From the sequence record OR352948.1: 64,000 bases of DNA. One strand, written 5' to 3'. The translations under genes and the position numbers were made by a program. Shown one piece after another: positions 3,514 to 40,541 of this stretch. Source of the stretch: Escherichia phage AV118. Within the stretch, counting starts at the first letter, position 1; every line of letters starts with the position of its first letter. The notes under the pieces are model-generated. The model worked only from the letters and a program-made list of their open reading frames with translations, made no database searches and had not been told where the DNA came from.

Positions 3514-5202
3514 TTATGAAACAGTCATTACCGTAAATCGTCCAACTTTGCTCATTTGAAGATGTTGTCCATAAGCTTGTGGGTCATGGTCTCTGTGACT
3601 AATTATAAACACGTTTGCATCGGTTAGAGAGTTAAGAATTGTTGAAATAGCTTTAATACCTTCAGAATCAGTCGCGGAATCCATGACTTCGTCCATAATT
3701 AATGTATTGATTCTAACACCAGAGACCTTTTCAGCAATATCTCGCCATGTAAACAACAACGCGATATCGATACGTGCTTTTTCACCTTGACTAAATGAAG
3801 CATAACTGAACTCTTCACGACCACGTGATTTTATAGATTCATTGAATTCTTCGTCAATAGAAAACACGTAATCAGCTTCCATGATTTTAAGATAATGGTT
3901 AATCTGCTTGTTGAACAGAGGCACATATTTTTTAATGATAGCACCTTTAATACCAGAATCTTTTAACATATCTGTGATAATACCACGATGGTATTTTTCA
4001 AGAACGATATCCGATTTTGTTTTAATGATTTTATCAAGTTCTTTTTGAAGCAAAGCTATCTCATCGGCATGGTCGATAAATTCCGCTGAGGCTTGTTCTA
4101 TTGCAGCTTTAACTTTCTTAGCTTTATCAATAGTGGCAATCATTGCTTGTTTCTTGGTACGAATATCAGATGCAAGGTCCTGTTTAGTCTTAACATTAGC
4201 TCTATATTCGTCCACTAGGACACTCAGATTATCTCTGTGGCAGGTAAGTTGCTCGAATGAGTGATTACATTCATGAAGCTTATCGGTAATCTTAGAGACA
4301 ATAGGATCACCCTGGTGCAACTGTGATGCGCAAGTAGGACATGTACCGCCATCATGATACATCTTAATAACTTTGTTGTATGAGTCAATTTTAGATTTAA
4401 TCAAGAATGCTTCTTGTCCTATCTTGTTGAATGCCTCAGTAGGGTCTTCATCAAGAACGATATTAAGTAGTCGCTCATTAGCTTCTTCGATTTCTGCTTT
4501 TAATGAACGAGCTTCTTTAGCTAGGTCGTCATACATATTCTGTAGACGCGCTACATTATCACCAGATAATTTCTTTTGACGTTCGATATTCTCGTTATAA
4601 ATCTTAATTTGTTGGATAACACCATCTTTCTTGGCATCGAGAACTTGTCCCTGGGAATTAAGTTCTCGAACTTGAGACTTATTGATTTTATCCATTTCAG
4701 CGAGTGTGCCGACTTCTAAAAGGTCTTCGACAAGTTTTCTACGAGCAGGGGTGCTAAGAGCCATGAAAGGGGTATACCCTGCCGTCCCAAGCACAACGAT
4801 CTGTTTAAAAGACGCGTATGACATTCCGATGCTACGTTCAAATTCTTCTTGGAAGTCACGACTGCTGGCAGATTCATCAAGACGAACACCGTCAACGGAG
4901 ATTTCGAAAATATTGGGCTTTTGGCCACGTTTAATGAAGTATTTTTTATCATCGAATTCCATCCAAAGCTCAACTAAGAGCTCTTTCTTGTTCGTGCTAT
5001 TAATGATTTGTCCTTTCTTAACATCACGAAATGGTTTACCGAAAAGTCCGAAAGTAATGGCTTCTAACATCGTAGATTTACCACCGCCATTTTTACCAGT
5101 GATTAATGTCTTTTGAACTTTATCTAATTGGATATCAATAGGATTCCCACCTACCGACATGATGTTTTGATAACGAACACGATTTAATTTAAATGATTTC
5201 AT
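3514..5202 (-). CDS. 46: Recombination endonuclease subunit gp46 (Rad50/SbcC-like ATPase)
   Basis: 562 aa; Walker A GKNGGGKST, central coiled coil with CPTC zinc hook, C-terminal LIMDEV Walker B/D-loop; T4 gp46 size and order. Confidence 0.9.
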   Translation of the reverse strand: MKSFKLNRVRYQNIMSVGGNPIDIQLDKVQKTLITGKNGGGKSTMLEAITFGLFGKPFRDVKKGQIINSTNKKELLVELWMEFDDKKYFIKRGQKPNIFEISVDGVRLDESASSRDFQEEFERSIGMSYASFKQIVVLGTAGYTPFMALSTPARRKLVEDLLEVGTLAEMDKINKSQVRELNSQGQVLDAKKDGVIQQIKIYNENIERQKKLSGDNVARLQNMYDDLAKEARSLKAEIEEANERLLNIVLDEDPTEAFNKIGQEAFLIKSKIDSYNKVIKMYHDGGTCPTCASQLHQGDPIVSKITDKLHECNHSFEQLTCHRDNLSVLVDEYRANVKTKQDLASDIRTKKQAMIATIDKAKKVKAAIEQASAEFIDHADEIALLQKELDKIIKTKSDIVLEKYHRGIITDMLKDSGIKGAIIKKYVPLFNKQINHYLKIMEADYVFSIDEEFNESIKSRGREEFSYASFSQGEKARIDIALLFTWRDIAEKVSGVRINTLIMDEVMDSATDSEGIKAISTILNSLTDANVFIISHRDHDPQAYGQHLQMSKVGRFTVMTVS

Positions 5203-25052: not shown

Positions 25053-25634
25053 TTATAACAACCCTGTCAAATCGTTCCAATGCTTCCGGCATAATGACAC
25101 ATATCTATCGGTATCACCAATTTCAATTTGACTGCCATCTGTAATTGGAAGTCCGTCTTCCGTGACTCTAGCTACCATTGTGGCCTTTTTACCACAATGA
25201 CAAACACCTTTAAGTTCAACAAGTTTATCGGCAATAGCCATTAATGCTTGAGAACCTTCAAATAGATTACCTTTAAAATCTGTTCGTAGTCCATATGCCA
25301 TTACCGGCACATTGTACACGTCAACAATACGACTAAGTTGATACACCTTTTCAGTAGTTAAGAACTGAGCTTCGTCAACAAATACACAATGAATATCCTT
25401 TTGTGCTGCAGCCCATTTATAAAATTCAAAGATATCCATGTCTTTTGTAATTATATTGGCATCCTGACGAATACCAATACGAGAGACTATTTCACCTTTT
25501 GAATCACGAGTATCAATAGCCGGTTTAAGAACTAATACACCCATGCCACGTTCTTTATAGTTATGTGCGGCAGTAAGTAATGAAGCAGACTTACCAGCGT
25601 TCATAGCGGCATAGGTAAAAATTAAACTAGCCAT
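25053..25634 (-). CDS. tk: Thymidine kinase
   Basis: 193 aa with P-loop GKSASLL and C-terminal zinc ribbon (CHCGKK...CRKH). Confidence 0.9.
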   Translation of the reverse strand: MASLIFTYAAMNAGKSASLLTAAHNYKERGMGVLVLKPAIDTRDSKGEIVSRIGIRQDANIITKDMDIFEFYKWAAAQKDIHCVFVDEAQFLTTEKVYQLSRIVDVYNVPVMAYGLRTDFKGNLFEGSQALMAIADKLVELKGVCHCGKKATMVARVTEDGLPITDGSQIEIGDTDRYVSLCRKHWNDLTGLL

Positions 25635-25826: not shown

Positions 25827-26039
25827 TTAGGTTCACCTTCTTTAACGAAATCTGGGTAAGGGTAAAATCCTGAGTAAAACCCTTCACCTTTATGATTGCT
25901 ACAACCTTTGTTCGAACAGTAACACCAATAATCAAAATCACAAGCCATTTCGTCATTGCATAAAGCAAAAACTACAGGCCATTCGCATTTTTCGCATTTA
26001 GCACCTGTAAGAATTTTTGTTTGACTCATAGCCATGTCA
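25823..26039 (-). CDS. Cysteine-rich small protein
   Basis: CEKCEW...CNDEMACDFDYWCYCSNKGCSNHKG. Confidence 0.4.
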
Positions 26040-26238
26040 CCTTTAAGCAATATTCTTCTACATGTTGTTTACGGCCTTTCTTATCAATAAAGGTATATTC
26101 AACGAATGTTCCGATGTAGTCTTTATCTACATCATGTGGACTATTAATTGGACATTTAGTACGACAAATGCGTTCCCATTGACGAATAATTACTGCCTTA
26201 TTCTTTGGATCATATGGATGTGGATAATGTATATTCAT
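26026..26238 (-). CDS. Hypothetical protein
   Basis: ORF whose ATG overlaps the stop of the macro-domain gene. Confidence 0.4.
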   Translation of the reverse strand: MNIHYPHPYDPKNKAVIIRQWERICRTKCPINSPHDVDKDYIGTFVEYTFIDKKGRKQHVEEYCLKVTWL

Positions 26239-26732
26239 AATAACGGTTCCCAATCAACAATCACAATTTCTAGTTTAGTGGAATACGTATCTAAAATCTC
26301 TTCGATGACATCCCAGTTTCCACCACCAATACCTGCACCAATTCTTGGCATATAAATTACAGGCTTTGTTATCTTATTCTTTCCGAATTCATTTAATTCT
26401 ATTATACAATTCATTAAAGCAGAGTACTCAAAATTAGGTCCCGGCTCAAACTGTGTATAAAGATTAAAGCAATAAGCTTTATGGGTCTTAAAATATTTTT
26501 CATAAACCGAATAAGTCCCGAGTTTAGACTTGTCTCCGAATTCGGTTTGAAGTTTATCGGCTTCTAAAATTTTTGGATAAGCCTTTGCTAATTGGCCTGC
26601 TACACCGGCGCCCATTGTATGAAAACAATTACACCCATGAGCAATATTATTACCTTTAGAAAACAGGGCGACAATATCGCCCTTGATATAGTTTTTAATC
26701 ACTTGCTGCAAGTCCTCTATTATAAGAGTCAA
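26235..26732 (-). CDS. Macro-domain protein (ADP-ribose-binding/processing fold)
   Basis: IAHGCNCFHTMGAGVAGQLAKAYP and MPRIGAGIGGGNW match macro-domain glycine-rich motifs; T4 tk.4 position by order. Confidence 0.55.
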   Translation of the reverse strand: MTLIIEDLQQVIKNYIKGDIVALFSKGNNIAHGCNCFHTMGAGVAGQLAKAYPKILEADKLQTEFGDKSKLGTYSVYEKYFKTHKAYCFNLYTQFEPGPNFEYSALMNCIIELNEFGKNKITKPVIYMPRIGAGIGGGNWDVIEEILDTYSTKLEIVIVDWEPLL

Positions 26733-27033
26733 CTAGACGGTCCACCATAGAATTGCATGCTGCCTTATCTTTAGGTTCCGCCACCGAGCATTCTAATATT
26801 TGCCATTTTTTATAGTATCTTTTAATTAAGGTAGACGCCTTGAACCTACTAGACGCCCCATCTTTTTCTCCGTCTTTATACGCGTATAACAATTTTTGTG
26901 AAAAATCTACTTTACACTCTTGACTTTTACCACAATAATCAGACGCCGTTCTGTTTGTATACTCCGTTACATCAGTATATGTAGTATTAGCAAGAGCGTT
27001 AAATGAAACCAAGCTAACTATTAAAGCCAACAT
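26695..27033 (-). CDS. Secreted small protein (vs position)
   Basis: N-terminal signal peptide (MLALIVSLVSFNALA) and four Cys; positional equivalent of T4 vs, not verified by sequence. Confidence 0.4.
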   Translation of the reverse strand: MLALIVSLVSFNALANTTYTDVTEYTNRTASDYCGKSQECKVDFSQKLLYAYKDGEKDGASSRFKASTLIKRYYKKWQILECSVAEPKDKAACNSMVDRLVDSYNRGLAASD

Positions 27034-27038
27034 TTTGG

Positions 27039-27581
27039 TCATTCTTTTATTTCCAGTAGTTTATTTGATTTAAGGTAATTAGCCTTTTCTAGGACTTCAG
27101 AAGCATATTTACTTCCAGCACTTGTCTTCCATCCTGCATTATATGAGGATATAGCTTTTCTTATATCCCCATTATGTATATTTAACCAATAAGAAAATTC
27201 GATATAAGCCCATCTGGCTGAATTAGACCGCTTAGATAGCATTTTCTTAATTTGGGCATCAGACATATTATAACCAAGCTGGTTAATTCTTGCCCTCATT
27301 GTTGGTAGATAATTTTGGAACATTCCATACGCATGGTGACCTTTCTTATCTTTAAGATTAATACCGGCAGATGATTCCTGCCATAGTATTGCGGCCATTA
27401 TGTATCCAAGTCCTTTCTTATGCATATTTTCATGCGTTTTAAATTTTCCGTCCTTAGAAAACTGTTCCCCAAACTGATAAGCATAATTCAAGTTATCGAG
27501 TTGGACATTACTAAAAGTATGCTCGGAGCTATGTGCTGATAACGAAAGAGCAAATAGACCAGCGAGTAGTGCTTTTCTCAT
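27039..27581 (-). CDS. Secreted protein, possibly lytic-transglycosylase-like (vs.1 position)
   Basis: Signal peptide MRKALLAGLFALSLSAHS; 180 aa. Confidence 0.45.
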   Translation of the reverse strand: MRKALLAGLFALSLSAHSSEHTFSNVQLDNLNYAYQFGEQFSKDGKFKTHENMHKKGLGYIMAAILWQESSAGINLKDKKGHHAYGMFQNYLPTMRARINQLGYNMSDAQIKKMLSKRSNSARWAYIEFSYWLNIHNGDIRKAISSYNAGWKTSAGSKYASEVLEKANYLKSNKLLEIKE

Positions 27582-27589
27582 GTTTACCT

Positions 27590-28048
27590 CTAGATTTTAA
27601 TCACTGCTTTAGAAGCTTTTCCTGGTAGTCGTTTACTGTTAATAATAGCCATTCTACATTGAAGAGTCTTCATTTTGAATGCCGGATTTTCGCGACAAAC
27701 TGTAAGTCCTAACCAAAGATTTCCGTCAGTTATTTCTAAACGGCCTGGGCGATATTCGACACCTTCGACAAAATCTTCATCAACATCCGGACGTGCCGGC
27801 ATTGATAAAAATTCTGCAACTTCTTTAACGTGATTTTTTACTTTATGAAATAATTCAAAAACGTAATTCTCATCTATTTCTCTCTGGATGGCACGATCTA
27901 AGAGATGTTGAGAATACTTGATATGAAAGCCTGGTAGTCCAAGAGACTTTGCAGCATCTTTTATACCGGCATTTATTTTGCGGAACTCCGTTTCAAAGAT
28001 TCGACGGAGTTTATTACGGCGGATAAAAACATCCGAATTGATAGTCAT
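27590..28048 (-). CDS. regB: Sequence-specific endoribonuclease RegB
   Basis: 152 aa, near-identical to recalled T4 RegB (MTINxxVFIRRNKLRR...PGKASKAVIK). Confidence 0.85.
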   Translation of the reverse strand: MTINSDVFIRRNKLRRIFETEFRKINAGIKDAAKSLGLPGFHIKYSQHLLDRAIQREIDENYVFELFHKVKNHVKEVAEFLSMPARPDVDEDFVEGVEYRPGRLEITDGNLWLGLTVCRENPAFKMKTLQCRMAIINSKRLPGKASKAVIKI

Positions 28049-28591: not shown

Positions 28592-28805
28592 AAGGAATTT
28601 CCTCATCTGTGGCAAGGTCATATTCGACCAATTGGATAGGCTCATTAATACCATATCCACGTACAGTGATATCAGTTGTCGGATAGTTTCCAGTAATATC
28701 ACCCGTTCTAAATGCTTCAATGAATGATTGCTCGCCTGAGCAACTAAACCAGGCGGCAAAACATTTTAAAACATCTTCAGACCCTTCTATAATCAATTTA
28801 GCCAT
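28581..28805 (-). CDS. Hypothetical protein (vs.5 position)
   Basis: 74 aa ORF. Confidence 0.4.
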   Translation of the reverse strand: MAKLIIEGSEDVLKCFAAWFSCSGEQSFIEAFRTGDITGNYPTTDITVRGYGINEPIQLVEYDLATDEEIPYVD

Positions 28806-29167
28806 TATAGACTCTCAGTAAAGGTACGAGCGATAACGTCGCGTTGCTGTTCCGGAGTCAGAGAGTTAAAGCGAACTGCATATCCGGATACACGGATGGT
28901 CAGCTGCGGATATTTTTCTGGATGCTTAACTGCATCTTCCAAAGTTTCACGACGCAGAACGTTAACGTTCAGATGTTGACCACCTTCAATTTTAACTTTA
29001 GGTTGATGTTCAATTTCAATTTCACGGGCATTCAAACCGTAGAAAATTTCCGGGTCTACAATAGCGTCTTCTTTAAAAGTCTTAGAGACAATAATCCGGG
29101 CTTGAGTACCGTCTTCAAAATAAATAGTGCCTTTATGTGCACCTTCAAGAATTTGATATGCTTTCAT
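28805..29167 (-). CDS. Autonomous glycyl-radical cofactor (GrcA/YfiD-like; T4 Y06I homolog)
   Basis: C-terminal ~60 aa ([60 protein letters not shown]) carries the RVSGY glycyl-radical motif and matches recalled E. coli GrcA. Confidence 0.85.
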
Positions 29168-40289: not shown

Positions 40290-40366
<77 letters not shown>

Positions 40367-40466: not shown

Positions 40467-40541
40467 TGGTGGCCCTGGCTGGTTTCGATCCAGCTACCTA
40501 TCAGTTATGAGCTGACAGCTCTCCCATTGAGCTACAGGGCC
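40467..40541 (-). tRNA. tRNA with CAT anticodon (Ile-lysidine or Met)
   Basis: Hand-folded cloverleaf: acceptor ggccctg/cagggcc, D-arm gctc-aatggga-gagc, anticodon stem gtcag/ctgat with loop ctCATaa, T-arm gctgg-atcgaaa-ccagc, encoded CCA. Confidence 0.7.

Follow-up and report, generated by a model that had tools for sequence, protein, structure and literature searches.

The window analyzed here, a 64,000-nucleotide stretch of DNA from Escherichia phage AV118 (OR352948.1), carries on its minus strand the genes regB, vs.1, vs, a macrodomain gene, tk.3, two small ORFs and tk, an arrangement that equals the T4 order vs, tk.4, tk.3, tk.2, tk.1, tk. The 3.1 kb round the macrodomain gene are 99.0–99.6% identical to Mosigvirus genomes (Escherichia and Shigella phages such as AV115, JK36 and NBG1), and 12 kb of the window are likewise 99% identical to Mosigvirus records. 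An earlier note on this DNA had placed the macrodomain gene in the tk–vs interval, and this placement holds, with vs (valyl-tRNA synthetase modifier; 26695..27042, minus strand) on one side and tk (25053..25634) on the other. The ATGA overlap with the next gene, also described in that note, lies at 26235..26238 (minus strand), where the stop codon of the macrodomain gene (TGA, 26237..26235) runs into the start codon (ATG, 26238..26236) of the 70-aa tk.3 ortholog (26026..26238, minus strand).

The minus-strand ORF 26235..26732, which had been taken as the gene, does exist, and the two motifs quoted for it, HGCNCFHTMGAGVAGQLA and RIGAGIGGGNW, are present in its translation; its start, however, was set about 30 nt too far upstream. 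Position 26732 is the first TTG downstream of an in-frame TAG (26735..26733), that is, the beginning of the mechanical longest ORF. The start codon of T4 tk.4, an ATG, aligns with the GTG at 26702, and because an in-frame TAG lies directly 5' of the T4 ATG, the longer form cannot be conserved. Moreover, the near-identical phage JK36 (99%) is annotated with a 155-aa form, and a GAGGA Shine-Dalgarno sequence (26713..26717, minus strand), read from the sequence and conserved in T4 and JK36, precedes the GTG by 10 nt. Together, the T4 alignment, the JK36 annotation and the GAGGA sequence point to a 155-aa gene at 26235..26702 (minus strand), for which GTG 26702 is most likely the start, rather than TTG 26732, and which would overlap the vs stop codon by 8 nt (4 nt in T4). 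Judged from the T4 alignment, the 5' extension of the mechanical ORF (26703..26732, minus strand), which lies inside the 3' end of vs, is probably not translated.

The encoded protein is 85% identical to T4 Tk.4 (NP_049723) over 155/155 aa, from which it differs by 24 substitutions, for example G127 instead of the K127 of T4, and all 15 family-invariant residues are common to both proteins. Since the T4 gene also lies between vs and tk.3, this full-length identity together with the shared neighbors makes the gene almost certainly an ortholog of T4 Tk.4, now also called AdfM (see below). Existing GenBank labels for the gene read 'macro domain protein', 'phosphatase' or 'Macro domain, Poa1p_like family', and the T4 RefSeq record of tk.4 notes an 'A1pp phosphatase motif'. 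Along this string of overlapping genes (26026–27042, minus strand), identity to T4 jumps from one gene to the next, with 70/70 aa for Tk.3, 85% for Tk.4 and 67% for Vs, which suggests either mosaic exchange or very different constraints.

The protein is a macrodomain, as the earlier note had proposed. Pfam PF01661 (Macro) matches with E=1.9e-6 and 28.2 bits, above the gathering cut-off of 22, and covers model positions 2–117 of 118, while PHROG 335 matches with E=1e-66; the database homologs number 394, and the signal thus stands far above chance. An AlphaFold2 model, built from an alignment of 51 homologs with the T4 sequence left out, reached a mean pLDDT of 95.1 and a pTM of 0.90, and the predicted structure has the three-layer alpha/beta/alpha fold with a central mixed sheet that matches solved macrodomains. 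Its top Foldseek matches in the PDB were TARG1, Poa1p, BT1257, DarG and SCO6735 (TM 0.67–0.80). N25 and the glycine loops G31-A-G33 and G122-A-G124-I-G-G-G128 are all present and are invariant or nearly so. The Pfam and PHROG matches, the AlphaFold2 model and the Foldseek matches jointly identify the protein, by sequence profile and predicted structure, as a stand-alone macrodomain of the ALC1-like (TARG1/DarG/SCO6735/Poa1p) class.

To locate the putative active site, we aligned the window protein with T4 Tk.4, BT1257, human TARG1 (checked against PDB 2LGR), two DarG macrodomains and PhiKZ gp104 (sequence as published), and conservation was scored in a set of exactly 200 relatives, of which 80 are bacterial and 120 come from phages or metagenomes. 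Three motifs stand out. The first, HGCNC (26625..26639, minus strand), holds the invariant H22 and N25, which by spacing and transitive alignment equal His24 and Asn27 of SCO6735, the latter being the conserved macrodomain Asn. The second, NLYTQ (26451..26465, minus strand), places Q84 at the position of TARG1 Lys84, DarG Lys80 and SCO6735 Gln85. The third, PRIGAGIGGGNW (26313..26348, minus strand), is the glycine-rich phosphate-binding loop with the invariant G122 and G124. Within the alignment, Q84 (LYTQ) falls on the catalytic lysines of TARG1 (K84), DarG (K80) and PhiKZ AdfM (the lysine of 'FPTK'), and a family-profile alignment to TARG1 agrees on this assignment; the second residue of the TARG1 dyad, Asp125, corresponds to Gly126. 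Q84 is invariant in 200/200 relatives, and so are H22, G23, N25, C26, G33, D49, G62, N80, Y82, P119, G122 and G124. Coordinates and transitivity equate H22, N25, Q84, G122 and G124 with SCO6735 His24, Asn27, Gln85, Gly126 and Gly128, the residue-level alignment to SCO6735 being direct for the C-terminal loop and transitive, via BT1257, TARG1 and DarG, for the remainder.

SCO6735 of Streptomyces coelicolor (PDB 5E3B), which shares 54% identity with BT1257, is an ALC1-like macrodomain that stands alone, and it has been characterized biochemically (PMC9411070). Its Gln85 sits at the lysine position and Q85A abolishes activity, which depends on Asn27, Gly128 and His24 as well; the H24Y variant loses activity wholly, for which the authors allow for a folding effect (PMC9411070). 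The enzyme strips DarT-made thymidine-ADP-ribose off DNA faster than DarG or TARG1 does, leaves guanosine-ADP-ribose untouched and protects E. coli against DarT (PMC9411070). We had considered the missing DarG/TARG1 lysine as an argument against a hydrolase, and dropped it because SCO6735, a very active hydrolase of thymidine-ADP-ribose on DNA, cannot work without the Gln that it has there. The earlier note had named a lack of catalytic-site residues as a refutation: the lysine of DarG and TARG1 is indeed absent, but its place is taken by a Gln that is essential in SCO6735.

Among solved structures, the closest relative is BT1257 of Bacteroides (PDB 2FG1/2AFC), with E=1.8e-10 for the single sequence and 1e-16 for the family profile; like SCO6735, it is about 27% identical to the window protein. 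The subclass formed by SCO6735 and BT1257 is marked by Gln in place of Lys, an H-x-x-N motif and Gly-x-Gly in the phosphate-binding loop, all of which the window protein has (H22, N25, Q84, G122, G124), and the N-x-x-x-Q motif is common to BT1257 and the window protein. The likeness ends at the loop after the Gln. A hallmark of the SCO6735 subclass is a mobile loop five residues longer than that of DarG and TARG1, which carries Lys89 and Lys93/94 and, being rich in Lys, has been proposed to act as a DNA clamp (PMC9411070). This long lysine-bearing loop is absent from the Tk.4 family: the window protein reads QFEPGPNFEY where BT1257 has QHGIYKDSKGLPPIRY, and its loop FEPGPNFE is lysine-free and, by profile alignment, 6 residues shorter than that of BT1257. 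Similarly, SCO6735 Lys34, mutation of which nearly abolished activity, is Ala32 in the window protein, whereas D49 and Y82 are invariant in the Tk.4 family and absent from BT1257. SCO6735 also differs in being a bacterial, DNA-damage-inducible protein and not a phage counter-defense protein. The Tk.4 family profile scores against BT1257, TARG1, SCO6735, Poa1p and DarG all fall between 43 and 64 bits, and the family is, on sequence, best regarded as a branch of its own within the ALC1-like class, slightly closer to BT1257/SCO6735 than to the others. Isoelectric points, tried as a stand-in for DNA binding, told us nothing: PhiKZ AdfM acts on DNA and yet has a lower isoelectric point than Tk.4.

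DarG2 (T. aquaticus, 5M31/5M3E; M. tuberculosis, 5M3I) has Lys80 in FPTK, a DarT-binding C-terminal domain and an adjacent darT, all of which the window protein lacks. PhiKZ gp104, a chimallivirus DarG2-like protein also named AdfM, resembles the window protein in being a single phage macrodomain of the same fold class with no DarT-binding C-terminal domain; it is only about 21% identical to it, however, retains the DarG 'FPTK' catalytic lysine and is imported into the phage nucleus. PhiKZ AdfM finds Mtb DarG with E=9e-25 and scores 133 (132.9, PADLOC) and 138 bits (NCBIfam) on DarG models, whereas the 155-aa window protein scores 32.8 bits on PADLOC DarG and 31.3 bits on NCBIfam NF048014 (cut-off 250), covering positions 4–146 of these 329–338-position models. 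Since 133–138 bits stand against 31–33, PhiKZ AdfM and T-even AdfM are different subfamilies under one name, and the shared name is no ground for assuming that the T-even protein descends from DarG. Human TARG1/OARD1 and yeast Poa1p belong to the same ALC1-like class and are the top Foldseek matches (TM up to 0.80). The TARG1 Lys84/Asp125 dyad is replaced by Gln84/Gly126 in the window protein; TARG1, too, removes DarT-made thymidine-ADP-ribose (PMC8501950). Poa1p has a large insertion and a Ser at the Q84 position; of the residues probed in its structures, His23/Ser30 correspond to H22/T29, and Phe152 corresponds to Gly126, which is Gly or Ala across the Tk.4 family.

The gene and its anti-DarTG2 role have already been described, for the T4 ortholog and in 2025, so that little of the biology is new. 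When a T4 transposon library was grown on E. coli with DarTG2, tk.4 was the single significant hit (bioRxiv 10.1101/2025.11.20.689424, a preprint of November 2025); the T4 study worked at 30 C in M9 glucose. A clean T4 tk.4 knockout was sensitized to DarTG2, and the gene was renamed adfM, for anti-DarT factor Macrodomain (10.1101/2025.11.20.689424). The authors noted the similarity to the DarG macrodomain and, as to an enzyme activity that takes ADP-ribose off DNA, went no further than 'seems likely' (10.1101/2025.11.20.689424). The name AdfM was independently given to PhiKZ gp104 (Cell Reports 2026, PMC13309987), which in vitro removes ADP-ribose from a DarT2-modified TNTC oligonucleotide and protects against DarTG2 (PMC13309987). 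By orthology, with one preprint as the base, the window copy can be expected with good confidence to protect its phage from DarTG2. Of the functions suggested in the earlier note, reversal of a defense based on DNA-targeting ADP-ribosyltransferases is thus supported by the T4 Tk.4/AdfM genetics against DarTG2 (10.1101/2025.11.20.689424), and a reading from sequence alone had correctly recovered a real phage counter-defense gene; its alternative, processing of NAD-derived signaling products, finds no support here.

What the present analysis adds is mechanistic, namely a lysine-free, glutamine-type site in T-even AdfM. In the mechanism that we propose, the protein would be made from the tightly overlapped vs-tk.4-tk.3-tk.2-tk string and would bind the ADP-ribose that host DarT2 puts on the N3 of thymidine in single-stranded phage DNA. 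It would then hydrolyze the bond between ribose and base, restoring normal thymidine and letting replication continue, and the phage would thereby escape the abortive infection brought about by DarTG2. As in SCO6735, no lysine would take part in catalysis. The substrate and a water network would be positioned by Gln84, which Asn25 would hold in place with His22 beside it, and the diphosphate would be held by the glycine loops G31–G33 and G122–G128. By analogy with SCO6735, we put the probability of such Gln-type hydrolysis of thymidine-linked ADP-ribose on single-stranded DNA at about 0.7. For the window copy, we infer the same role as that of the T4 protein, the DNA de-ADP-ribosylation activity and the catalytic details alike. 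The mutants implied by a Gln site are Q84A or N25A, and no lysine mutant.

To place this subfamily among phages and bacteria, we surveyed the occurrence of relatives and their neighbors. Relatives are present in 2,800 of 50,697 phage records, from phages of many host genera, and the carriers comprise T4-like phages and phages of other genome sizes (about 85–95 kb, about 136–160 kb and over 230 kb). Bacterial genomes contain at least 360 loci with a relative, and in the best 80 of these the gene stands alone, encodes about 150 aa and has heterogeneous same-strand neighbors, among which NADAR, NAMPT/NAPRT, AAA_21 and EEP genes are few. No DarT2 homolog was detected within 4 kb of these 80 best relatives (0/80, phmmer --max), nor was a DarT found in the 64-kb window; with no DarT near the 80 relatives, there is therefore no genomic link between the Tk.4 subfamily and DarT. 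An origin as an orphan DarG antitoxin, which we also considered, is unsupported in view of the stand-alone genes of about 150 aa, their mixed neighbors and the lack of a DarT2 homolog in the 80 loci. There are hints that cellular members reside in DNA-repair or NAD-salvage contexts.

In the Roseobacter group (Ruegeria, Roseovarius, Shimia), a gene of about 400 aa of the endonuclease/exonuclease/phosphatase family directly follows the macrodomain gene on the same strand at 9 loci, for example at 4511–5791 of L081 and at 4463–5404 of L012 in our set of bacterial loci (L003–L082). The gene adjoining the bacterial relative is NADAR in four other loci and NAMPT/NAPRT in two.

Read jointly, these features raise the tentative and rather less probable idea that the Tk.4 family is a third DNA-ADP-ribose-removing branch, recruited independently of chimallivirus AdfM from a stand-alone bacterial macrodomain, and possibly a broader eraser. 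Such a branch may combine a Gln like that of SCO6735 with a short lysine-free loop like that of DarG and TARG1 and with an invariant Asp49, Asn80 and Tyr82 of its own. Its source may have been a housekeeping or repair macrodomain, widespread and stand-alone in bacteria and outside any DarTG operon, which was taken up by T-even and many other phages. If this were true, the protein might also act on ADP-ribose linked to other bases, RNA or proteins, and would then be a general eraser against several ADP-ribosylating defenses.

That the phage protein is a broader eraser of protein or RNA ADP-ribosylation, with DarT2 reversal as one activity among several, appears improbable as an explanation on its own. 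Candidate targets would be Glu/Asp-linked marks, uracil-linked RNA marks and marks made by other host ART toxins, as well as a trimming of the modifications made by phage Alt, ModA and ModB. T4's own ARTs modify arginine, and TARG1-class macrodomains are not known to remove such marks. The spread over 2,800 of the 50,697 phage records and many DarT-less bacterial loci does seem wider than one defense system demands. Furthermore, SCO6735 and TARG1 act both on DNA and on Glu/Asp-ADP-ribosylated proteins (PMC9411070); on the other hand, T-even phages stay sensitive to the mRNA ART CmdTAC (PMC11618068).

DarT2 might also be neutralized mainly by binding and inhibition of the toxin, or by shielding of its DNA product, without any hydrolysis of ADP-ribose. 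This idea draws on the observation that the catalytically dead variants SCO6735 Q85A, DarG K80A and TARG1 K84A inhibit DarT in vitro, SCO6735 most strongly (PMC9411070), and the T4 genetics are compatible with binding as well as with hydrolysis (10.1101/2025.11.20.689424). We nevertheless regard it as having a low probability, as the DarT-binding C-terminal domain of DarG is missing and the match is limited to the first part of the DarG models (positions 4–146 of 329–338). In addition, the invariance of H22, N25, D49, N80, Y82 and Q84 across distant phages and DarT-less bacteria fits an enzyme site better than a toxin-specific surface, and hydrolysis by the Gln-type site remains our preferred reading.

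Finally, the 'phosphatase' and 'A1pp motif' labels in GenBank and the JGI names imply a Poa1p-like ADP-ribose-1''-phosphate phosphatase or an O-acetyl-ADP-ribose deacetylase acting on soluble NAD metabolites, with an indirect anti-DarTG2 phenotype, which we consider unlikely: the labels are domain-name transfers rather than tested functions, the one phenotype known for the ortholog concerns a DNA ADP-ribosyltransferase specifically, Poa1p departs from the Tk.4 family at two positions (Ser for Gln84, and Phe152 for a Gly or Ala), and the known pathways of T4 RNA repair leave no 2'-phosphate, so that no Appr1p by-product is expected.

The 5' part of the gene contains a stable hairpin, GGGCGAU-AUU-GUCGCCC, in codons 7–13, followed by a U-rich run (26665..26683, minus strand; fold z = -2.56). 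Two unrelated records, those of phages NBG1 and fPS-2, have a 'terminator' annotated here, and in the NBG1 record the macrodomain gene was cut short on that account. T4 and fPS-2 have the very same hairpin; Krischvirus retains it with an A-U pair in place of a G.U and with another loop, and in Karam-, Jiaoda- and Lazarusvirus it is disrupted. Attenuation or control of RNA stability between vs and tk.4 are conceivable roles, but the hairpin may also simply result from the conserved KGDIVAL codons. In a scan for promoters and terminators, matches were no more frequent than in shuffled sequence. The macrodomain gene has at its 3' end (26237–26266, minus strand) a sigma-70-like promoter match (TTGTGA, 18-nt spacer, TATTAT), and a 'predicted early promoter', which would drive tk.3 onward, is annotated at the same relative place in fPS-2.

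Elsewhere in the window, the vs.1 ortholog (27039–27581, minus strand; 3540–4082 of L001) is labeled 'SLT transglycosylase' in some phage records and 'endoribonuclease RegB' in JK36. The actual regB is the next gene (27590–28048), and the JK36 label looks like an annotation slip. A 120-aa ORF at 28805–29167 (minus strand) carries the glycyl-radical motif RVSGYAVRF and is labeled 'pyruvate formate-lyase' in JK36; it is probably a protein of the T4 Y06I / GrcA(YfiD) kind, an autonomous glycyl-radical 'spare part' of pyruvate formate-lyase. The tRNA genes that ARAGORN identified in the 64-kb window are just two, both on the minus strand: Arg-tct (40290–40366) and Met-cat (40467–40541).
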